From Parcubacteria group bacterium Gr01-1014_8 (GTDB lineage Bacteria > Patescibacteriota > Minisyncoccia > Phycocordibacterales > UBA2100): a DNA stretch of 64,000 nucleotides. This document shows positions 4,765 to 38,348 of this stretch, one piece after another. The DNA lies in the NCBI GenBank assembly GCA_007376385.1, contig VMGC01000002.1:32001-96000 (forward strand). The letters are read 5' to 3'. How positions within the stretch are numbered: the first letter of the stretch is position 1; each line of letters begins with the position of its first letter. The notes beneath the pieces were generated by a model. It was not told the origin of the DNA. It saw only the letters and a program-made list of their open reading frames with translations, and ran no database searches. The position numbers and the translations under genes are program-made.

Positions 4765-5460
4765 CTAATTTCTTCTCCAGCGAGGTTTGATACGTTTTAC
4801 GAACTCAATGCCTCCCAACACAACAATCACACCTGCCCATACTATAGCAAACGTTTGAAGCAGGGACTCTTCCGGAGCGTTCAGTATAAGAAAATTGAAG
4901 CCGCTGTGCAAAAGAGATGCGAGGATAACTCCGGCGGCTACGTACCATGCATGGATTTTGTGCGGTTTGTAGAACGAGAAGGCAAGGGCGAGCCCGACGA
5001 CGGCAGAAGAGAGCACGTGAAGCAATGTAGCCCCGACAAATCGCAAATTTCCGGTCATGATGGTCTCGATAGGGGTATTCCCCGCGAGCGGACTCATCAG
5101 AAAAAGGGTATTTTCAAGCGCGGCAAAACCGAGCGCGACAGCAACCATATAGATTACAGGGTCAATCGGCTCATCATCTTCGTGCCGCCAGAGGACCGCG
5201 ATACGCGCCGCGACATATTTCATCACTTCTTCGATGACAGACCACGCTGTAAAAATAGCCGTCGTGCTGACGAGAAAGGGTGCAACGAACTTTTGGAGCG
5301 GAATGACGACACCGACTGTTATCATTCCTGCGAAAAAAGCGAGGGCAATGAGCCGGCGAGGTTCTGGATGAGAATCTTCCCGCCGCCAGAACCAGAGCCA
5401 TGCAAGGGCGGGGAAGAGCCCTCCTGCTATCGCCGCGAGAAACGGATAAAACTCTGACAT
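4765..5460 (-). CDS. PrsW-family intramembrane metalloprotease
   Basis: Multi-TM protein with the EEVMKY, FAALEN and HSGFN motifs characteristic of PrsW. Confidence 0.7.
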   Translation of the reverse strand: MSEFYPFLAAIAGGLFPALAWLWFWRREDSHPEPRRLIALAFFAGMITVGVVIPLQKFVAPFLVSTTAIFTAWSVIEEVMKYVAARIAVLWRHEDDEPIDPVIYMVAVALGFAALENTLFLMSPLAGNTPIETIMTGNLRFVGATLLHVLSSAVVGLALAFSFYKPHKIHAWYVAAGVILASLLHSGFNFLILNAPEESLLQTFAIVWAGVIVVLGGIEFVKRIKPRWRRN

Positions 5461-5474
5461 TGCGTTAAATTGTA

Positions 5475-5804
5475 TCAGGCTTCTGGCCCGTCCTTCTTCA
5501 CACCTCTTGCCGCCCGCGAGGCGTTAACTAGGGTTCGCATGTCTAGATTCTCAATCGGAATTATCACACCACCGACTCGTTGTCCTGGATCATGGAACGT
5601 TCCGCGCAGTTTGGCAGATATCGCATCCATATCTTCGCTACCTGCTGTCCACCACAAATATTTACAATTCTGTCTGAGTGCCTGCTCTTTGAGACTTTTT
5701 ACAAGCTTACTATTAATACCAGCCGCCCGCTCCGCCTCCAATACTTCCAGGTCGATAATGAACATCACATTTCCTTTTATTCTTCCAAGGTTGACCTCCA
5801 TCAC
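5475..5804 (-). CDS. GNAT acetyltransferase-like C-terminal segment (motif A-like RAAGINSKLV)
   Basis: ORF; overlaps the upstream ORF by 4 nt (ATGA). Confidence 0.4.
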   Translation of the reverse strand: MMEVNLGRIKGNVMFIIDLEVLEAERAAGINSKLVKSLKEQALRQNCKYLWWTAGSEDMDAISAKLRGTFHDPGQRVGGVIIPIENLDMRTLVNASRAARGVKKDGPEA

Positions 5805-6016
5805 ATCCCAAAAATTACGCCAATTGGCTGGGTGTCTCTACGCAATATCATTCCCGATTCAGGTGTAAGAACCGGAAGCTCCTCCTCTTTTGGGTCAAGC
5901 CCTACAACTCCCGCTTCTATTTCGCGAACGTCTTCTTGGTCTTTGCCGCTTCCCGTGATTACTTCCCAGCGTGAAGGTTGCTTCTCAACTTTGATATCTC
6001 CTTGGTCACTCATATG
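5801..6016 (-). CDS. Short ORF (71 aa) that may be the N-terminal part of the same GNAT gene in another frame
   Basis: ATGA overlap with 5475..5804; combined length fits a GNAT fold of about 180 aa. Confidence 0.3.
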   Translation of the reverse strand, partial: HMSDQGDIKVEKQPSRWEVITGSGKDQEDVREIEAGVVGLDPKEEELPVLTPESGMILRRDTQPIGVIFGM

Positions 6017-8133
6017 GGCCACTTTGCGACCATGAGGAGTGGTTCGTCCTTGTGCGGCATCTTTTGCCAGATAGCTTCCGTCACGAACGGCATGAACGGG
6101 TGGAGCAGTTTGAGAGAAGTTACAAGCAGCTCGTAGAGCAATCGTTGGCGGGACTGCCTCTCTGTGGGGTCTTCGCTTTTGAGAATGGATTTCGATTCTT
6201 CGATGACTTCGCTCGCGAAGCGATTCCAAAGGAAATGATACAGGTTTTCAGCTGCCAAATAGAATCGATATTTATCTATACTCTCTGTCGTGTCTGCTAT
6301 CACGTACGACATTTCATTAATGAGATCTGCGTCGTAGGTCGTGAATTCTGCCTTCAGGAAATCTGCTGATGCATCTGTATTCTCAAGGACAAAGCGCGCA
6401 ACATTCCAGAGTTTATTCGAAAAGAGTTTATACGCCTTTATCTTTTGTTCGGAGAGGGCCATGTCCATGCCCGGTGTGTTGCCGACAAGGAGCGCCATGC
6501 GCAGTGCGTCGGTCCCAAATACTCTTGTAACTTCCAGGGGGTTGATAACGTTGCCTTTGCTCTTGCTCATTTTCTGTTTCTGGGCATCGCGCACAAGTCC
6601 GTGCAAAAAGACATCCCGGAAGGGAACTTCACCGGTTCGATACAGGCCAAGCATTATCATGCGCATCACCCAAAAGAACAGGATGTCATAACCTGTTTCC
6701 ATGACTGACGTCGGATAGTAGGTTTTGAAGTCCGGCGAGTCAGGATAGCCAAGTGTGGCAAACGGCCACTGTCCTGACGAGAACCATGTGTCGAAGGTGT
6801 CGGGATCCTGTACCCATCCTTCGCCTGGGGATTCCGCTTGAATTTTTATCTCGTCGTCTTTGAACCATGCGGGTATTGGTATGCCCCAGACTATCTGCCG
6901 CGAAATATTCCAATCGCGGAGCCCTTCGAGCCAGTGGAAGAATATCTTTCTGTACTGTTCACTGACGAACGTGATGCGGCCGTCTTCAACTGCCTTGCCT
7001 GCCATATCAGCGAGAGGCTTTATCTTTACGAACCACTGCGGCATGACACGAGGCTCGAGGATGTCGTGCTCGCTTTTGTAATTGACAAGGACGTTGTGCG
7101 TGTACTTTTCATCGACTTTCACGAGCATACCTTTCTCTTCAAGGTCGCGAGCAACGGCTGCACGAGCTTCAAGTATTTTCATGCCCGCATATTTTCCGCA
7201 TTTTTCATTGAGACGCCCAAATTTGTCGATGACTTCGACAACAGGCAAACCATGTCGCTGTGCCACCGCGAAGTCATTTGGGTCATGTGCCGGCGTGATC
7301 TTGACAACGCCCGTACCGAATGCTTGGTCGACGTATTCATCCGCGATGACCTTGAGCTTCACGGTGCCCGTGAGACCCTCGAATTCGATCTCCTTGCCGA
7401 CCCATTTTTTATATCGTTCATCATTCGGATTTACTGCGACGGCTGTATCGCCGAATTTTGTCTCTGGTCTCACGGTCGCGAGTACGAAGGGCCCGTATTT
7501 CAGGTAGTACAGCGGGTCATTTCTCTCGACCACCTTAGTTTCGAGATCGGAAAGCGATGTCTGGTATTTGGTGCTCCAATGAACGGGACGCGAGCCCCGC
7601 ACGACGAGTCCGTCGTTGAACATCTTTTTGAATGTGCCGTAGACGGTAGATACAATTTTCGGGTCGAGTGTAAAGGTATTGCGGCTCCAATCGCACGAAG
7701 CGCCAAGCTCACGCAGCTGTCCTTCCATGAATTTTTTGTTCTCAAGCGTGAAGGCAAGCGTTTCTTTGTAGAATTCATCTCGCGGCATTTTGAAACGCGA
7801 ACGGCCCTCTTTTTCAAGTTTTTTCTCGAATACGATCTGGGTCTCGAATCCGGCATGGTCGCCTCCCGGCAGCCAGAGGGTCTTGTATCCCCGCATTCGT
7901 TTGTAGCGTATAAGAAGGTCTTGGAGGGTTACGAAAAGCGCGTGGCCAACATGAAGAGAGCCGTTGGCGTTCGGCGGCGGCATGATAATGCAGAATGGCT
8001 CCTTGTGTTCTTCGGGAAGGTTATCTGGATTAAAGTAGCCGCTTTGTTCCCATAAGGAATAGATGCCCGGCTCAGTGTCCGCCGGATCGTACGGTTTGAG
8101 GAATTCTTCTGGTGCGCTGCCTCGATTCTCCAC
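6010..8133 (-). CDS. valS: Valine--tRNA ligase, compact form (707 aa, no C-terminal coiled coil)
   Basis: PPPNANGSLHVGHA (HIGH), KMSKSKGN (KMSKS), TFDTWFSS; class I editing-type synthetase architecture. Confidence 0.85.
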   Translation of the reverse strand: MENRGSAPEEFLKPYDPADTEPGIYSLWEQSGYFNPDNLPEEHKEPFCIIMPPPNANGSLHVGHALFVTLQDLLIRYKRMRGYKTLWLPGGDHAGFETQIVFEKKLEKEGRSRFKMPRDEFYKETLAFTLENKKFMEGQLRELGASCDWSRNTFTLDPKIVSTVYGTFKKMFNDGLVVRGSRPVHWSTKYQTSLSDLETKVVERNDPLYYLKYGPFVLATVRPETKFGDTAVAVNPNDERYKKWVGKEIEFEGLTGTVKLKVIADEYVDQAFGTGVVKITPAHDPNDFAVAQRHGLPVVEVIDKFGRLNEKCGKYAGMKILEARAAVARDLEEKGMLVKVDEKYTHNVLVNYKSEHDILEPRVMPQWFVKIKPLADMAGKAVEDGRITFVSEQYRKIFFHWLEGLRDWNISRQIVWGIPIPAWFKDDEIKIQAESPGEGWVQDPDTFDTWFSSGQWPFATLGYPDSPDFKTYYPTSVMETGYDILFFWVMRMIMLGLYRTGEVPFRDVFLHGLVRDAQKQKMSKSKGNVINPLEVTRVFGTDALRMALLVGNTPGMDMALSEQKIKAYKLFSNKLWNVARFVLENTDASADFLKAEFTTYDADLINEMSYVIADTTESIDKYRFYLAAENLYHFLWNRFASEVIEESKSILKSEDPTERQSRQRLLYELLVTSLKLLHPFMPFVTEAIWQKMPHKDEPLLMVAKWPI

Positions 8134-32759: not shown

Positions 32760-33416
32760 TTATATTTCTAAATACCGCGCTTCTGCCGGAAGCACGCCCA
32801 ATTTCGAAATAGGGAACAATCGCAGGAGGACACGTCCGACGATATTTTCGCGCGGGAGAATTCCCCACGTACGAGAGTCTGATGAAACGCGGCGATTGTC
32901 TCCGAGTACAAAAAATTGATCGGACCCGAGCGTAACGGTTGTGCCCATTGGCCCGCCAATATTCTCAAGCGAGAGATATGGCTCATCGAGATAGAACCCC
33001 TCTGTGTTCTCAGCATTTTGGATCCTGACGCCTTGGCTATCTACCTGAACTGTTTCTCCGGGGAGGCCGATAATTCGTTTTATAAGTGTTCGGGAGTATT
33101 CTTGCGGCAAGTGAAAGACAATAACGTCACCACGCTGAGGTTCCTCAAAGCGGTACGATATCCTATCAGTTATCAAATAGTCCCAATTATTGAAGTTGTG
33201 TTCCATCGAACTGCCTGCAACGACGTACGGAGCTGCAATAAAGAAGCGAATGATGAGCGCGAGGATGAGCGCGAACACCGTGTAGCCGAAAAGAGCGCCG
33301 CGACCACTCGACGACTGTACGGGCTCGAGAGAAATCGAAGAAATGTGTCGCAGCGCGGCGTCAGACCCACTATTTTCCTGGTTTCCTTCCCGTCCATTTT
33401 GAAAAAGTTCACTCAT
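32760..33416 (-). CDS. lepB: Signal peptidase I
   Basis: N-terminal TM, GSSMEHNF catalytic Ser region, RIIGLPGETV, VLGDNRRVSSDSR. Confidence 0.85.
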   Translation of the reverse strand: MSELFQNGREGNQENSGSDAALRHISSISLEPVQSSSGRGALFGYTVFALILALIIRFFIAAPYVVAGSSMEHNFNNWDYLITDRISYRFEEPQRGDVIVFHLPQEYSRTLIKRIIGLPGETVQVDSQGVRIQNAENTEGFYLDEPYLSLENIGGPMGTTVTLGSDQFFVLGDNRRVSSDSRTWGILPRENIVGRVLLRLFPISKLGVLPAEARYLEI

Positions 33417-33699
33417 AAAGTGACTTCAGGCGGGTACATCGCGCGCATTCTACTACTTAACAGTAATTGACACCAAGCGGGAGGGGTGTTGTATGTGGAA
33501 AACAATATATTTTTTCTCGCACGGATATTTTTTTGCTAAAAAAGTTCGCTCGGTATTCCTCTCGCTGAACCCGAGCGCATATTTCCGGCGATATGTGCCC
33601 TTATGCTTCAACGCGCAACTCCTCACTTCATTCGGAGACCCAGGCTTGCGCGTTTCCAGAGATTCAGCGAGAGGAATACCCGCTTGAATGAAAAATATT

Positions 33700-33761
33700 T
33701 ATTGGCGAGCGTTGCGAGTGACGCGAAAATGTACTCATTTTCATGTCCGAGCCGGGGAGCC
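33700..33761 (+). repeat. Hairpin/CCGAGC-box family copy D (GCGAGCGTTGCGAG, GAAAATG-N4-CATTTTC, ATGTCCGAGCCGGGGAGCC)
   Basis: Family member between lepB and pth. Confidence 0.5.
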
Positions 33762-33940
33762 AAAACAGGGTCGAGTGCCCTTTATCTGCTATGATGTTTC
33801 GTTATGACCCGGTAGTAGAATTTCGGCTTGTCTTGTCTAAATCGAATAACACAATTAATCTATATATTCAAAGATGACCCTATGACGTTTTTACGACCAC
33901 GACCTGCGCGTCGCGCCAGCCGAAATTCCACTAACCGGGT

Positions 33941-34534
33941 ATGACATGGGTGATCGTTGGCCTCGGAAATCCAGGAGAGGAGTATGAGCATACTCGCCAC
34001 AACACCGGCAGAATGGCTGTCCAGCACTTTGTGCGCTCAAAAAAGATAGGTGAGTGGAAAGAAGATGCAAAAGCGAAGTCGCTTGTCGCGCGAGGCATGG
34101 TTGAACGCTCGCTCGCCGCGTTCGTGTTGCCTGAAACGTTCATGAACAAGTCGGGAGGCGCGCTCACGAAATTCGTAAAGAGCATGAAAGCAGCAGAAAA
34201 TCTCGTTGTGGTCTACGATGAGCTTGATCTGCCTCTTGGAGCGATGAAAATTTCGTATGACCGTGGTAGCGGTGGACACAAAGGCATTGAATCCATCATG
34301 CGTGCAGTCAAAACGAAAAAATTCTGGCGCATTCGCATCGGTGTTTCGCAGTCTACGGCTGGAGGAGAGATAAAAAAACCTCACGGCGGCAAAGCGGTGA
34401 ACGATTTTATACTTGATATATTCAAACCGCACGAACACGCGGTTCTAAAGACCGTATTCAAGCGCGTCGAGAACGCACTCGAAAGTATCATCGTCGACGG
34501 ACCTGAGAGAGCGATGAATCAGTTCAATTCATAA
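33941..34534 (+). CDS. pth: Peptidyl-tRNA hydrolase
   Basis: MTWVIVGLGNPGEEYEHTRHNTG canonical N-terminus. Confidence 0.9.
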   Translation: MTWVIVGLGNPGEEYEHTRHNTGRMAVQHFVRSKKIGEWKEDAKAKSLVARGMVERSLAAFVLPETFMNKSGGALTKFVKSMKAAENLVVVYDELDLPLGAMKISYDRGSGGHKGIESIMRAVKTKKFWRIRIGVSQSTAGGEIKKPHGGKAVNDFILDIFKPHEHAVLKTVFKRVENALESIIVDGPERAMNQFNS

Positions 34535-34539
34535 AGCTC

Positions 34540-34992
34540 ATGAGCGAGCAAAAACGTGGCCGCGATAAAACTCCGCCGTTGTCGTTGAAAACGGTACTTA
34601 AAGAAGGAGACATTCTTCTCGAAACATGGCTGGATGCACATCACAAACAATTTCTCGGAAAGGTTGAAATCGAACCGCACGAGGATTTTCATTATCTTCG
34701 TGATACGGAAAGTTTAGTTACAACGAAAGGAATTGCGGGCGTTATGATCGATACGGTGAATCGTTTCCTTGAATCCGAAAAGAAAATAGGACTCCTTACG
34801 GAAGTAATAAGTCCTGATTCTCAGTACGCAAACGGTATGTATGAGCGGCGCGGTTGGAAACGCGTCCATCCGCACATGGCCGTACTGGTATACGTGCCGA
34901 ATGGTCTTAAAACCCCGTCGGCATCTGAGGCATTCGCAATGCGGCGAACGGTGCGTTATTTTGCTCGCCGTTGGCCCAATGCTTCTGATTGA
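34540..34992 (+). CDS. Hypothetical protein, 150 aa (possibly a GNAT-like fold)
   Basis: ORF; lies inside the putative inserted segment between pth and the pth 3-prime-end duplicate. Confidence 0.4.
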   Translation: MSEQKRGRDKTPPLSLKTVLKEGDILLETWLDAHHKQFLGKVEIEPHEDFHYLRDTESLVTTKGIAGVMIDTVNRFLESEKKIGLLTEVISPDSQYANGMYERRGWKRVHPHMAVLVYVPNGLKTPSASEAFAMRRTVRYFARRWPNASD

Positions 34993-35034
34993 ACGACTTA
35001 AGCAACAGGTTTCAGAGTCATCCGAATGTCCGAG

Positions 35035-35760
35035 GTTCGACCTCGGACATGTTGTGCTTAATCGGTATTAAGCTTGTATGCAAGCCACTCATTTATGTGC
35101 TTTTTGAATTCGGAAGGTGTTGAGAAATATTCCGGCATCGCTTTAGCGTCAATCAGCTTATTTTCAGGACGTTCCACTCCCGAAAAATCGAGATAGCTTG
35201 AATAAGGATACCTTTCTAGAGATTTTAAATTCGCGAGAGCAGACAAAGTCTCCTTTTCAAACGTCTTCGTAAGTGCGACTGGATTCAGATGCACGTACGC
35301 TATGAGGTATTTGAGATACCGATCATCTTTTGCATGAACGGCTTTGAATTTTCCTTGAAGGAGTGCTCCGTTGCGTTCATGTCGTTTGTTGAAATACATC
35401 GTATAGCCTGTTATGACTTTCTGCATGAATTTACTTATCCCGCCCACGCCAATTTCTCGGAGTATCAGGTGAAAATGATTTGGCATGAGGCAATACGCCG
35501 CGACGTCCACAAGTGGAGAGCCACGCGGCAGTTCCAAAGCTTCACGCAGTGAGTATCTACTTAGCCGTTCATCGAGCCGTTCTTCCTGGTTGCAGGAATA
35601 AAGGAGGGTTAGGAACCGCTCATAGTCACCGCGTGAGCTAAAAATCGAGCGCTTCTCGGTTCCCCGATTGTAGACATGATATATCTCATCGCTTGCGAAC
35701 TCTATTTGCCGTGTCACCCGGTGATTATAAAACAAATGTCCGAGGTCGAACCTCGGACAT
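35035..35760. mobile_element. Y1 transposase (IS200/RayT-type) gene flanked by inverted 25-nt palindromic REP-like hairpins ATGTCCGAGGTTCGACCTCGGACAT (35035-35059) and ATGTCCGAGGTCGAACCTCGGACAT (35736-35760)
   Basis: The two hairpins are exact reverse complements of each other and bracket the transposase ORF. Confidence 0.75.
35058..35735 (-). CDS. IS200/IS605-like or REP-associated tyrosine (Y1, HuH) transposase
   Basis: YHVYNRG, YCLMPNHFHLIL (HuH), KYLIAYVHLNPV (catalytic Tyr region). Confidence 0.75.
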   Translation of the reverse strand: MFYNHRVTRQIEFASDEIYHVYNRGTEKRSIFSSRGDYERFLTLLYSCNQEERLDERLSRYSLREALELPRGSPLVDVAAYCLMPNHFHLILREIGVGGISKFMQKVITGYTMYFNKRHERNGALLQGKFKAVHAKDDRYLKYLIAYVHLNPVALTKTFEKETLSALANLKSLERYPYSSYLDFSGVERPENKLIDAKAMPEYFSTPSEFKKHINEWLAYKLNTD

Positions 35761-35767
35761 TGTGGAT

Positions 35768-35852
35768 AAAATAGTTTTCAAGCGCGTCGAGCATGCGCTT
35801 GAGACAATTATCCTCGATGGCGGAATGAAAGCGATGAATCAGTTCAACTAGA
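35768..35852 (+). pseudogene. Diverged duplicate of the pth 3-prime end (encodes ...KIVFKRVEHALETIILDGGMKAMNQFN*)
   Basis: About 75 percent nucleotide identity to 34450-34534 (pth ...TVFKRVENALESIIVDGPERAMNQFNS*). Confidence 0.6.
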
Positions 35853-35871
35853 TATCCAGAGCGGCAAGATC

Positions 35872-36336
35872 ATGTTGTTTCTGTGCAATAATAAACGCAT
35901 GGCGGATCCGTCAGAACAAATGCGACCAAATTATCTGCGTCCAGATCCGGAGCTTGAGATAAAGCAGACTCCTGATGAGTGGGGAGTCTTTTTGGCAACG
36001 AGATCTTTTAATGATATTAAGAGTAGATTCGAATTAGAGATTGGCAACATTGAACGCCGAATTAGTGGTGCAGAGGAAGACATGCGTAATCTCTCAGGAA
36101 AATCAGATGATGTTTCAAGAAAATGGCGTGAATACTCTATGCAAACACTGCAGAGTTGTTTAAACGAAGTAATTCCGGCACGTCTGCCGGGTTTTCAGAG
36201 AGGCGTGGATAGAGTCAATGCACGTCAAGAATTTACCGAACTGCAAAAGGAAGAGATTGCGGCAATCGTCGATAGGCTAAAAATAGCTCGTGGCCAAGCT
36301 GAAAGCGCACTAGCGAAATTTACGCTACCGGCTTGA
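35872..36336 (+). CDS. Hypothetical protein, 154 aa
   Basis: ORF only. Confidence 0.45.
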   Translation: MLFLCNNKRMADPSEQMRPNYLRPDPELEIKQTPDEWGVFLATRSFNDIKSRFELEIGNIERRISGAEEDMRNLSGKSDDVSRKWREYSMQTLQSCLNEVIPARLPGFQRGVDRVNARQEFTELQKEEIAAIVDRLKIARGQAESALAKFTLPA

Positions 36337-37534
36337 GCGTCATCCTTCGCTCCTTGGGTTCGAAGAGCGTGATAGAGAACGGATACACTTTGCCGAGCTC
36401 TAATTTTGCGCGAAGTTCTGCTTCGTCCTTGAATTCAGAGACGTGTACGAGTCCTGCAACGCCTTCTTCGATAGATGCAAGAGCGCCATGCTTGTTGTAT
36501 TTGATGATGACCGCATTCACCGTCTGATCTTTTTTATACTGTGCAGCGGCAGATTTCCACGGGTCGTCGGTGAGCGCCTTTATGGAGAGGGATACTTTAT
36601 CGTCTTTTATCTCGATGACCTTTACATTCACTTTCTCGCCGACTTTGTAGCGAGTTTTAGGATTCTCAACGAGCGCCCAATCCATTTCTGAGATGTGCAC
36701 CAATCCCTCTAAGCCTTCTTCGAGTTTTACGAATACGCCGAAGTCTGTTGCGCCAGTCACGATGCCTTCAAGCGTATCGCCGACGTGATATTTCTCAACA
36801 AGGGAGGAGCGCTCCGTGCTTCCTGCGCCCTTCTCGCTGAAAATAAGTTTTTGTTCTTTCGGATTTGCGGTAATGATGAGAACTTCCAGGCGCTGGCCGA
36901 TAAGTTTTTTCAATTCCACGAATATCTTGTCCTTATCTCCATCCGGCACTCGCGGATAGTGCGCAGGTGCGAGCTGGGAAGCAGGAAGAAATCCCTGCAA
37001 GCCGTTCCAGGCGATGATGAGACCTCCCTTGTTTGCATCAGTGATGGGAAGTTCGAGCACTGTTTTCTTTTGCGATGCTGTTTCCGCCTCGTTCCAGATG
37101 AGCGCTTGGCGCGCTTCGCGGAGAGAGAGCTCAATGTAACCTTCAGTGTTGTCGCTTCCAACGACCTTAGCTGTAACAGTGTCTCCGATGTGAACGTTCT
37201 TGAGAGCCTCTCGTGCAGAGAGGTATTCACGGCCGTAGATAATGCCTGTCCCGAATGGGTGGAGGTCAACGAACACGCGCGCGCGGCCCACCGCAATAAC
37301 GGGTCCTTCGACAACGTCATCATTTGCAGGAGGTTTAGGCGCGCTCTCCATGAGCTCAGCCATCGGGCCCTGCTTTGCTGCCGCTACTGCTTCTTCTTCA
37401 ACGTCTTCGAGCTCTTCCTTTTCCTTAACTTCTTTTATTGCTGTGACCATCGTTGTGTCAGCTGTGGGTACTTCCGCTCCTTCCGTGTCTGTCGCCGAGA
37501 TTTTCTTGACGGCACTCCGTCTTAGAAAATCCAA
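36320..37534 (-). CDS. rpsA: 30S ribosomal protein S1 (four S1 domains, short form)
   Basis: Repeated S1 OB-fold motifs (GxxVxGxVxxI...GLVHISE). Confidence 0.75.
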   Translation of the reverse strand: MDFLRRSAVKKISATDTEGAEVPTADTTMVTAIKEVKEKEELEDVEEEAVAAAKQGPMAELMESAPKPPANDDVVEGPVIAVGRARVFVDLHPFGTGIIYGREYLSAREALKNVHIGDTVTAKVVGSDNTEGYIELSLREARQALIWNEAETASQKKTVLELPITDANKGGLIIAWNGLQGFLPASQLAPAHYPRVPDGDKDKIFVELKKLIGQRLEVLIITANPKEQKLIFSEKGAGSTERSSLVEKYHVGDTLEGIVTGATDFGVFVKLEEGLEGLVHISEMDWALVENPKTRYKVGEKVNVKVIEIKDDKVSLSIKALTDDPWKSAAAQYKKDQTVNAVIIKYNKHGALASIEEGVAGLVHVSEFKDEAELRAKLELGKVYPFSITLFEPKERRMTLKPVA

Positions 37535-37712
37535 GTGTAGTCGCGCAGCGAGCTACTGTGAGGCGGGTGAGTATAAACCCAAGCGTCCTATTAACTAGTA
37601 ATTAAAAATGCCCCTTGGGGCGTCGAGCACTATATATTGTATTAAACTTTGTTGCAAGAGGATGATGCCGCGAGAGTCAACGGATCGCTAAGAAACTGCT
37701 ATAATCCCGACC

Positions 37713-38348
37713 ATGATTCTTACCTACCACGAGGGGGGATGCATCCGAGCGAGTGCGGGCGATACAACTCTTGTTTTCGGGCCGGTCTCGAAGCAATCGA
37801 AAAATTTCAAGCCGACGAGTTTCGGTGCGGATGTTGCGTTCATTTCCGTGAACCATCCCGATATGAATGGCGCAGAAGAAGCCGGCCGCGGCGAGAAGCA
37901 GCCGTTCATCATCGCGGGCCCCGGCGAGTATGAGGTGAACGGCATCATCGCGGCCGGATTTTCGTCGAGATCGAAATATGACCTGTCCGGTCAGGGAGGC
38001 AGAGACCGTATCAATACAATATATGCCGTGGATTTTGATGGACTTTCTGTTCTTTACCTTGGCGCAGAATCAGAATCTGACATGCCGAAGGAGCTTCTTG
38101 AAATGGACGCGCCCGATATCCTCATTACGCCGATAGGAGGGTCAGGCGTTCTTTCTGCCGCCGATGCGCAAAAGCTGGCAGTGAAACTTGAAGCAAAAAT
38201 AGTCATTCCGATCTTCTTTGATGCAAAAACGCTGAAGACATTCCTAAAAGAGGCTGGTTCCGAAGGTGTAAAGCCGGTAGACAAACTGACGCTCAAGTCA
38301 AAGGACGTTGCCGGCAAGGAAAATGAGGTCGTCGTCTTGAGTGCATAA
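37713..38348 (+). CDS. Metallo-beta-lactamase-fold hydrolase
   Basis: MILTYHEGGCIRASAGDTTLVFGP N-terminus typical of the short MBL-fold hydrolases. Confidence 0.6.
   Translation: MILTYHEGGCIRASAGDTTLVFGPVSKQSKNFKPTSFGADVAFISVNHPDMNGAEEAGRGEKQPFIIAGPGEYEVNGIIAAGFSSRSKYDLSGQGGRDRINTIYAVDFDGLSVLYLGAESESDMPKELLEMDAPDILITPIGGSGVLSAADAQKLAVKLEAKIVIPIFFDAKTLKTFLKEAGSEGVKPVDKLTLKSKDVAGKENEVVVLSA

Follow-up and report, generated by a model that had tools for sequence, protein, structure and literature searches.

This analysis concerns a Y1 transposase gene and its flanking hairpins in a 64,000-nt stretch of DNA, referred to as the window (contig VMGC01000002.1, positions 32,001 to 96,000), from Parcubacteria group bacterium Gr01-1014_8. 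The genes at the locus were, in order, pth (peptidyl-tRNA hydrolase), a small open reading frame (ORF) named ORF150, the Y1 transposase gene, a second small ORF named ORF154, and a gene for a ribosomal protein S1-like protein (S1), with the transposase and S1 genes on the minus strand. Short relics of neighboring gene ends lay outside the hairpins (Table 1). Read from left to right, the pth body was followed by a first slot (pth 3′ end, ORF150, and a relic of the S1 3′ end), the hairpin-transposase-hairpin unit, a second slot (a relic of the pth 3′ end, ORF154, and the S1 3′ end), and the S1 body. Positions 33001-38000 were 100% identical to locus L121, an independent assembly of public reads (Logan SRR8863434); a misassembly of the window locus is therefore unlikely, and an assembly artefact was rejected as its explanation.

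Table 1. Features of the pth/S1 locus, in window coordinates.
Feature	Position	Strand	Description
pth (peptidyl-tRNA hydrolase)	33941..34534	+	Intact, 197 amino acids; Pfam PF01195 173 bits, TIGR00447 162 bits
pth last 81 nt	34454-34534	+	Resident counterpart of the pth relic
ORF150	34540..34992	+	Apparently native pth neighbor; no assigned function, very weak GNAT-like signature
S1 3′ relic	34998..35024	-	8 codons plus stop, RMTLKPVA; truncated 5′ end 1 nt from left hairpin
Left hairpin	35026..35050		ATGTCCGAGGT-TCG-ACCTCGGACAT; 7 nt past transposase stop; outer part of arm 35025-35063
Y1/HUH single-strand-DNA transposase, predicted RayT (TnpA-REP) class	35058..35717	-	219 amino acids; YHVYNRG, NHFH, YVHLNP, YSSY
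Right hairpin	35736..35760		Loop CGA; 18 nt upstream of GTG start; outer part of arm 35723-35761
pth 3′ relic	35768..35851	+	About 27 codons plus own stop (35849-35851); truncated 5′ end 7-13 nt from right hairpin
ORF154	35872..36336	+	Orphan ORF, annotated 145 amino acids; fills the slot of the putative second junction copy
S1 last 27 nt	36320-36346	-	Resident counterpart of the S1 relic
S1 (ribosomal protein S1-like)	36320..37534	-	Intact; S1 domains in orthologues

On the minus strand, the transposase ORF spanned 35058..35735. In the public annotation, as in the homologues, translation begins at the GTG at 35717 for a product of 219 amino acids, which was 100% identical to the annotated protein G01um10148_460, encoded on a 200-kb contig. 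The motifs by which the gene had been recognized in the original prediction, HFHLIL and YHVYNRG, were both present, the former within PNHFHLIL. Pfam Y1_Tnp was matched at 24.1 bits, narrowly over its cutoff of 23. In total, 7,496 database homologues were found with a typical identity of about 55%; among the best-scoring homologues listed, nearly all were about 219 amino acids long and those with a source name were Patescibacteria. An alignment of 28 homologues contained 57 invariant columns, including YH.YNRG, YCLMPNHFH, (L/F)QGKF (with the F nearly invariant), Y.HLNP, and YSS. A PDB sequence search with the single protein returned no match and a profile search was marginal (E ~0.5), so a fold search was needed. 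The AlphaFold model (pLDDT 81, with a helical C-terminal tail) had its best PDB fold match in 4er8_A, the E. coli TnpA-REP with a bound repetitive extragenic palindromic (REP) hairpin (E = 1e-4, target TM 0.64), followed by the TnpA proteins of IS608, IS200, and ISDra2. Structures of tRNA-His guanylyltransferase (Thg1) were interleaved among these matches and were taken as unrelated. No C-terminal helix-turn-helix (HTH)-like domain (Bac_DnaA_C, HTH_23, HTH_28) was matched in Pfam at E up to 0.1. By analogy with the E. coli protein, the transposase is predicted to be a single-strand-DNA nuclease-ligase of the RayT (TnpA-REP) class.

Both flanking hairpins consisted of an 11-bp stem and a 3-nt loop and were exact reverse complements of each other, with zero such pairs expected by chance. 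The original prediction had described 25-nt perfect palindromes at either side of the gene; both elements exist and their reverse complementarity was exact, but they are stem-loops rather than perfect palindromes and the left one lies at 35026-35050, not 35035-35059. Folded as single-stranded DNA, the hairpins reached -12 to -13 kcal/mol (z = -4.8 to -6.9). The inverted repeat extended inward to 39 nt with 85% complementarity, and the left hairpin fitted the family signature C-R-AGG-N5-CCT-Y-G. Between the right hairpin and the GTG start, 6 nt ahead of the GTG, was a TATAAT, which was read from the sequence only, as the promoter scan gave no sigma-70 match. This spacing leaves no room for a ribosome-binding site (35717-35735), so the transposase transcript may be leaderless.

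Hairpins were paired with the transposase gene across the family. A tblastn search with the transposase gave 96 matches across the window and the fetched loci; 78 loci were non-redundant and had enough flank, and a hairpin was counted when its perfect stem was at least 7 bp. Hairpins were upstream in 61 of the 78 loci, typically ending 13-37 nt before the start codon, and downstream in 63, mostly within about 40 nt past the stop; 55 loci had both. In 39 loci, the two hairpins of one gene agreed in the innermost 7 bp of the stem, which differed from locus to locus. Around the loop, an apex of AGG at -5..-3 and CCT at +3..+5 was found in 109 of 123 distinct hairpins, and the next four stem pairs beyond this apex used all four Watson-Crick types. 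The 100% stem pairing was imposed by the selection of hairpins, but the AGG/CCT conservation and the matching within a locus were not.

If the hairpins were ordinary bidirectional terminators, their position at the transposase and the relics would be coincidental. A terminator scan flagged the left hairpin on the plus strand and the right hairpin on the minus strand, and both are placed between convergent genes. However, their T-tracts are weak, and in most of the 78 loci homologous genes are flanked by hairpins with this apex motif and a matching stem specific to the locus. In addition, one copy is embedded in frame in a transposase ORF and several occur within other long ORFs. Mere coincidence is highly improbable on these grounds; termination or insulation may be an additional role of the hairpins.

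Dispersed copies were sought in species-representative genomes, a set that excludes the source genome of the window. The window-type hairpin (TGTCCGAGGT-NNN-ACCTCGGACA) occurred as nine exact solo copies on eight contigs of GCA_964373725. Exact copies also numbered four in a Kaiserbacteria metagenome-assembled genome and three in Parcubacteria LiPW_41. Many solo copies were intergenic and some were within long ORFs. The fetched contigs of GCA_964373725 carried one cognate transposase copy and two paralogues at 30-40% identity. Scan matches in Streptomyces and other non-Patescibacteria had other loop lengths and were taken as unrelated.

Several further arrangements of hairpins and transposase genes were observed. 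In Parcubacteria LiPW_41 (L007, 2286-3015), a hairpin at 2446-2468 was in frame within the transposase homologue's own ORF, occupying a variable loop that reads ...RQLSEVGPRTIGR..., and a second copy was 9 nt past the stop. REP insertions within tnpA-REP genes have been described as unique to subclass 2.4 (PMC6006769). Tandem partial ("stutter") copies of one hairpin arm were found beside full hairpins in several independent assemblies: L001 (5795-5832 and 5933-5970), L123 (~830-880), L101 (2205-2240 and 2944-2986), L028 (383-430), and L020 (5339-5375). Repeated cycles of cutting and rejoining, or slippage, may have left these copies; those of L001 border a gap of Ns and could be assembly noise. 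Two diverged transposase paralogues per contig (30-48% identity to the query) were found in L059, L015, L108, and L001 (1-340), and in L059 each had its own distinct hairpin type, as reported for multi-RayT genomes. An unrelated 37-nt palindrome (TTGGACGCCAGGCTTCCATTGGAAGCCTGGCGTCCAA) was found in L066 (4534-4582 and 6435-6483) in the N-terminal coding parts of both ORFs flanking the transposase homologue.

The same gene order (S1, transposase, x, pth) was found in L001 (transposase 84% identical), L002 and L003 (70%), and the P0004 contig (69%). Transposase identity in L001 and L002 tracked that of pth (86% and 62%) and S1 (91% and 79%), so the gene appears to be old and vertically inherited in this slot. 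Judged from these comparisons, the unit is a probable long-term resident of the pth/S1 slot of a Parcubacteria clade, although its transposase was lost in L122 and replaced in L123. The original prediction had named in advance what would count against it: a palindrome present nowhere else, and relatives with this gene order but no duplication, which would mean an old, fixed arrangement. In part this is what the close relatives showed, with the transposase in the same pth/S1 slot at identities that follow those of the host genes. A 56%-identical homologue in L040 (5001-5666) was in a different intergenic slot, between a methyltransferase gene and gyrA, within a neighborhood (SBP-MTase-gyrA-...-S1) that is conserved as in the window's relatives; this position suggests local relocation or a regional preference.

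An autonomous insertion sequence (IS) of the IS200/IS605 type that had transposed recently, with the hairpins as its subterminal ends and the gene fragments as unrelated debris, would agree with the Pfam Y1_Tnp match, the fold resembling IS608 and ISDra2 TnpA, the hairpin-bounded unit of about 737 bp, and a presence that varies among relatives (L122 empty, L040 in another slot). It is nonetheless very improbable. The protein has the class-2 Y---NP and not Y---Q, NHFH and not DH[VI]H, and 219 and not about 150 amino acids (PMC6006769 table). The window held one transposase copy, with neither tnpB nor a second copy, and solo hairpins outnumber genes. In L001 and L002 the transposase has diverged in step with the host genes, relatives on plasmids were distant only (at most 34% identity), and a single partial match was on a phage record. 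With IS608 and ISDra2 the unit shares the catalytic fold and DNA hairpins at the element ends, and the single-strand "peel and paste" chemistry is likely by analogy; it differs in these motifs, in the lack of tnpB from the window, in that multiple identical copies were not seen, and in that the relative orientation of its hairpins varies.

Most known RayT/REP systems are proteobacterial, with a few other phyla also represented. The Y1 HUH fold with a Y---NP tyrosine, one criterion for RayT, was found here, with NHFH and YVHLNP invariant in the 28 homologues; low copy number with mainly vertical inheritance, another criterion, agrees with the single copy in the window. The unit shares with the REPtron (E. 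coli TnpA-REP/RayT, PDB 4ER8; Nunvar 2010, Ton-Hoang 2012, Messing 2012) the Y1/HUH fold, the class-2 Y---NP, a gene bracketed by cognate palindromic hairpins, and mostly vertical inheritance; REPtron genomes also carry dispersed solo hairpins, which here were seen in related genomes. It differs from the REPtron in its Parcubacterial host, in its perfect 10-12-bp stem and 3-nt loop with no GT[AG]G guide at the foot, in having about 3-10 copies per small genome versus hundreds, and in its 219 amino acids with a conserved C-terminal extension and an NCBIfam equivalog score half of the cutoff. The REP/RayT arrangement of the original prediction stands as far as the hairpin on both sides in most loci, the dispersed solo copies in relatives, and the 4er8_A fold are concerned. 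These observations support a unit that works like a REPtron or TIRtron, but the model score and the missing GTAG foot keep it outside RayT in the strict sense.

The nearest described group has been given three names: TIRYT/TIRtron (Di Nocera 2013, PMC3733652), TnpA-Y1 subclass 2.1 (Quentin 2018, PMC6006769), and RAYT Group 1 (Bertels 2017, PMC5581495), the overlap of TIRYT being large. Subclass 2.1 has the signature NH[YF]H, FQ, Y[IV]HLNP, and a tail SS, with a median length of 238 amino acids (PMC6006769). The transposase shares NHFH, (L/F)QGKF, Y[VI]HLNP, and YSSY with this subclass and has 219 amino acids against that median. Its unit shares with TIRYT the terminal inverted repeats of about 39 nt, partly self-complementary, that flank the gene. 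As in RAYT Group 1, repeat abundance is moderate, with exact hairpin copies in relatives against flanking 16-mers at about 12 per replicon (PMC5581495). The transposase therefore appears nearer to subclass 2.1/TIRYT, a placement made by motif match and length only. However, subclass 2.1 was reported not to be associated with REP-like hairpins (PMC6006769), whereas here the hairpin is the rule; GGGGWSAS is absent, and neither an HTH nor a DnaA-C-like domain was matched in Pfam. In its main text, the 2018 survey (PMC6006769) names none of Parcubacteria, Patescibacteria, CPR, or Saccharibacteria, and literature searches for the transposase family in candidate-phyla bacteria returned no description. 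The hairpin partner is previously undescribed for subclass 2.1/TIRYT proteins.

Relics of gene ends were found at both hairpins. The pth relic reads in frame as ...VFKRVEHALETIILDGGMKAMNQFN up to its stop. Positions 35774-35847 matched 34454-34527 at 76% over 74 nt without gaps, and over 25 aligned codons the relic was 74.7% identical to the resident pth end in nucleotides and shared 19 of 25 amino acids. For the copy as a whole (35768-35851), identity was 74.7-78%. A copy of the pth end at roughly 75% identity with its own stop had been predicted, and only its last position changed, from 35852 to 35851. The relic was 70.7-78.7% identical in nucleotides to the pth of L122, L123, and L001, and 61.3% identical to that of the more distant L002. 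With L122 pth it shared 78.7% of nucleotides and 22 of 25 amino acids, and the resident pth end shared 20 of 25 amino acids with L122. Codon differences of the relic were 8 synonymous and 6 non-synonymous against the resident end, and 8 and 3 against L122. The S1 relic was absent from the original description. Its peptide equals the resident S1 C-terminus, with 7 codons that differ, all synonymous (7/7) when the sequences were read, and it is collinear with the ORF150/S1 junction of L122.

The resident pth is no closer to the pth relic than the pth of other species is, and the differences are mostly synonymous, which makes recombination or horizontal exchange the right category of event; on this sequence evidence the relic appears to be a foreign-type allele. 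Its divergence is unlike the in-place decay of a local duplicate, so one of the two slot copies would come from another lineage. It is quite improbable that the pth/S1 junction was simply duplicated in tandem in situ and then diverged over a long time, with no DNA from another lineage. The slot copies are nearly equal in length (each about 570 nt) and identical gene-end duplications do arise around the unit in L001 and L101, as such an origin would have it, but the slot copies align only at the pth and S1 ends, and ORF150 and ORF154 have no detectable similarity. The mainly synonymous differences, free of indels, are unexpected for a freely decaying non-coding copy, and the pth of L122 is slightly more similar to the relic than the resident pth is.

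The empty site of L122, a relative as close as L001 (pth 85%, S1 90%), placed the break. In L122 the order was pth, ORF150, 3 nt, and S1, with no transposase, hairpin, relic, or ORF154. In L123, pth and ORF150 were followed by hairpins and then by a transposase of another sublineage (38% identity). Three ORF150 homologues were found; those of L122 and L123 were 66-70% identical and directly after pth, so ORF150 appears native to this position. Aligned with L122, the window was homologous across ORF150 and on into the final 26-27 nt of S1, up to the left hairpin. The extra DNA relative to the empty site (~35025-36319) comprised the hairpin-transposase-hairpin unit, the pth relic, and ORF154. 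The S1 relic locates the break in S1, 27 nt from the S1 end as aligned.

The original prediction had instead taken 34535-35767, with ORF150 and the transposase, as a block inserted into or next to pth, bringing in a replacement pth end and displacing the original 27 codons of its 3′ end to 35768-35851. The relic is just past the right hairpin with reading frame and stop kept, and it is nearer to the clade consensus than the resident end is (22 against 20 of 25 amino acids to L122), both of which such an insertion would explain. Even so, it is unlikely: the adjacency of pth and ORF150 is common to L122, which lacks the transposase, and L123, which has a different one; an S1 relic separating ORF150 from the left hairpin indicates that ORF150 once abutted S1, as it does in L122; and pth identity showed no step toward the 3′ end. 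Replacement of the pth 3′ end by recombination or horizontal transfer, as also predicted, named the right category of event, but the break is in S1 and not in pth.

Similar joins were found in other loci. In L001, a 167-nt direct duplication, 100% identical, flanked the hairpin-transposase-hairpin unit; its sequence comprises the final 124 nt of S1, a spacer, and the final 26 nt of a convergent GNAT gene, and its second copy begins 4 nt past a hairpin. In L101, 76 nt (98.7%) of the upstream gene's 3′ end flanked an array of hairpin, transposase, hairpin, ORF197 (a cargo ORF), and hairpin, and the relic begins right after the last hairpin. L014, on contig 6 of GCA_964373725 (the genome of L001), contained at 5250-6313 a gene end of about 132 nt, a VapBC-like pair, two hairpins, and a relic with its own stop, with no transposase. 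This relic was 77-79% identical, with 17 synonymous and 8 non-synonymous codon differences, and the AbrB/PIN (VapBC-like) label comes from reading the sequences, not from a profile search. A weaker case was L011 (6242-7922), where a small ORF was duplicated around a 370-amino-acid ORF and one hairpin, with 82% identity over the last 68 nt and divergence upstream; on reading, this ORF resembled the start of the ComEC metallo-beta-lactamase domain. In L066 the flanking direct repeats were a different palindrome, in L078 a protein repeat within a gene, and in L109 an intergenic repeat; none was a gene-end relic. The hairpin association rests on the configuration, that is, a relic of a neighboring gene end, including its stop, that abuts a family hairpin. 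The variable duplication length (76 to ~570 nt) argues against a fixed staggered-cut target duplication and fits a replication- or recombination-based join at the hairpin.

Taken together, the locus is probably a REPtron/TIRtron-like unit (35025-35761) at the join of two tandem, non-identical pth/S1 junctions, one of them from a related lineage. If it works as E. coli TnpA-REP and IS608 TnpA do, the transposase would recognize the hairpin folded in single-stranded DNA and cleave close to the hairpin foot, with YVHLNP supplying the catalytic tyrosine and NHFH the HUH metal site; rejoining of the DNA would then spread or rearrange hairpin copies. The most likely route has two steps. The junction would first have been duplicated in association with the hairpin, a step of which L001 and L101 would be the identical-form examples, and one copy would then have been replaced by homologous exchange with a relative's DNA, for which the transposase unit of about 700 bp and S1 would serve as arms. 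Alternatively, foreign single-stranded DNA would have been joined directly at the hairpin. The slot of the donor lineage would have held a different gene. By parsimony over L122, L123, and the window, the segment of pth relic, ORF154, and S1 end is the more plausible incomer, and the reverse is also possible. The hairpins may be sites where junction duplications arise.

Joins of this kind have a partial counterpart in tandem chromosomal duplications of Salmonella, at whose join points Shyamala, Schneider and Ames reportedly found REP sequences in 1990. In both, a palindromic repeat is exactly at the join between duplicated copies. Here, however, the joins are short gene-end junctions of 76-570 nt, the copies can be heterologous, and the transposase gene can sit at the join. 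Integrative elements that duplicate or replace a target gene's 3′ end (for example, tRNA-gene islands with tyrosine integrases) likewise have an intact gene end on one side and a diverged, displaced copy across the cargo; the window locus differs in its lack of an integrase, in its variable duplicated length, and in the hairpin of a Y1 transposase family at the junction.

It is a tentative extension, and rather doubtful at present, that RayT-like family hairpins in Patescibacteria, with or without the transposase, are generally sites of gene-end duplication and of splicing of cassettes from other lineages. A number of results weigh against the reading of the locus. As to the unit itself, the NCBIfam REP_Tyr_transpos model (equivalog NF047646) scored 39.6 bits, below its cutoff of 80; no GT[AG]G tetranucleotide foot was found in the flanks of the 55 hairpin pairs; and no hairpin copy beyond the two flanking ones was found in the 64-kb window, even with mismatches allowed. 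Loop orientation of the flanking hairpins was inverted in 18 loci and the same in 17, so inverted flanking is no rule of the family. As to the exchange, pth and S1 were compared with L122, L001, and L123 in sliding windows, and identity did not change stepwise at either gene end as in a mosaic, and hence the incoming copy (the present pth 3′ end or the relic) was not singled out; a donor arrangement for ORF154 was not found, there being no homologue among 5.8 billion proteins. As to the joins elsewhere, the hairpin association is carried by four good cases, a run of 100 Ns interrupts the unit in the L001 scaffold, where an assembly artefact is possible, and direct repeats of at least 60 nt within 3.5 kb were not rare, numbering 19 in 664 kb of loci, most of those inspected being intragenic.

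The genes beside the unit were also compared. The pth product was about 85-86% identical in amino acids to those of L122, L123, and L001, and S1 was 89.6-91% identical to those of L122 and L001. ORF150 had no Pfam match and only noise in a PDB profile search; weak similarity to AAC(2′) and the GNAT core was seen, and no convincing similarity was found to the L001 GNAT, L002 ORF121, or ORF154. The sole match to ORF154 among the 5.8 billion proteins was ORF154 itself, and it was absent from L122, L123, L001, and L002. ORF154 and the stop region of S1 overlap by 17 nt (36320-36336) on opposite strands. Upstream of pth was a 520-nt gene-free stretch (33417-33940), unusually long for a compact genome, with an 18-nt perfect inverted repeat (33552-33569 / 33663-33680); a 28-nt inverted repeat at 79% (33801-33828 / 33918-33945) extends to the pth start. 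This stretch had no Rfam match and no tRNA, and nothing of relevance came from scanning 30-40 kb for Rfam families and tRNAs.

The transposase thus belongs to a large, tightly conserved family with a clear hairpin partner, defined by a shared apex and co-varying stems, and this partner gives a testable recognition code. If the link between hairpins and joins were coincidental, the locus would still serve as a well-defined case of both a REPtron-like element and a recombination scar. Hairpin units that mark the joins of duplicated and exchanged gene ends would offer a handle on how ultra-small, recombination-dependent genomes swap accessory genes while leaving essential neighbors unbroken. If the extension to Patescibacteria holds, hairpins and Y1 transposases would drive a route of cassette exchange, with ORF154, the VapBC-like pair, and other ORFs as examples of cargo, in which a second copy of the 3′ end keeps the interrupted essential gene intact. 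Such exchange might act on single-stranded DNA at replication forks or on incoming transforming DNA.

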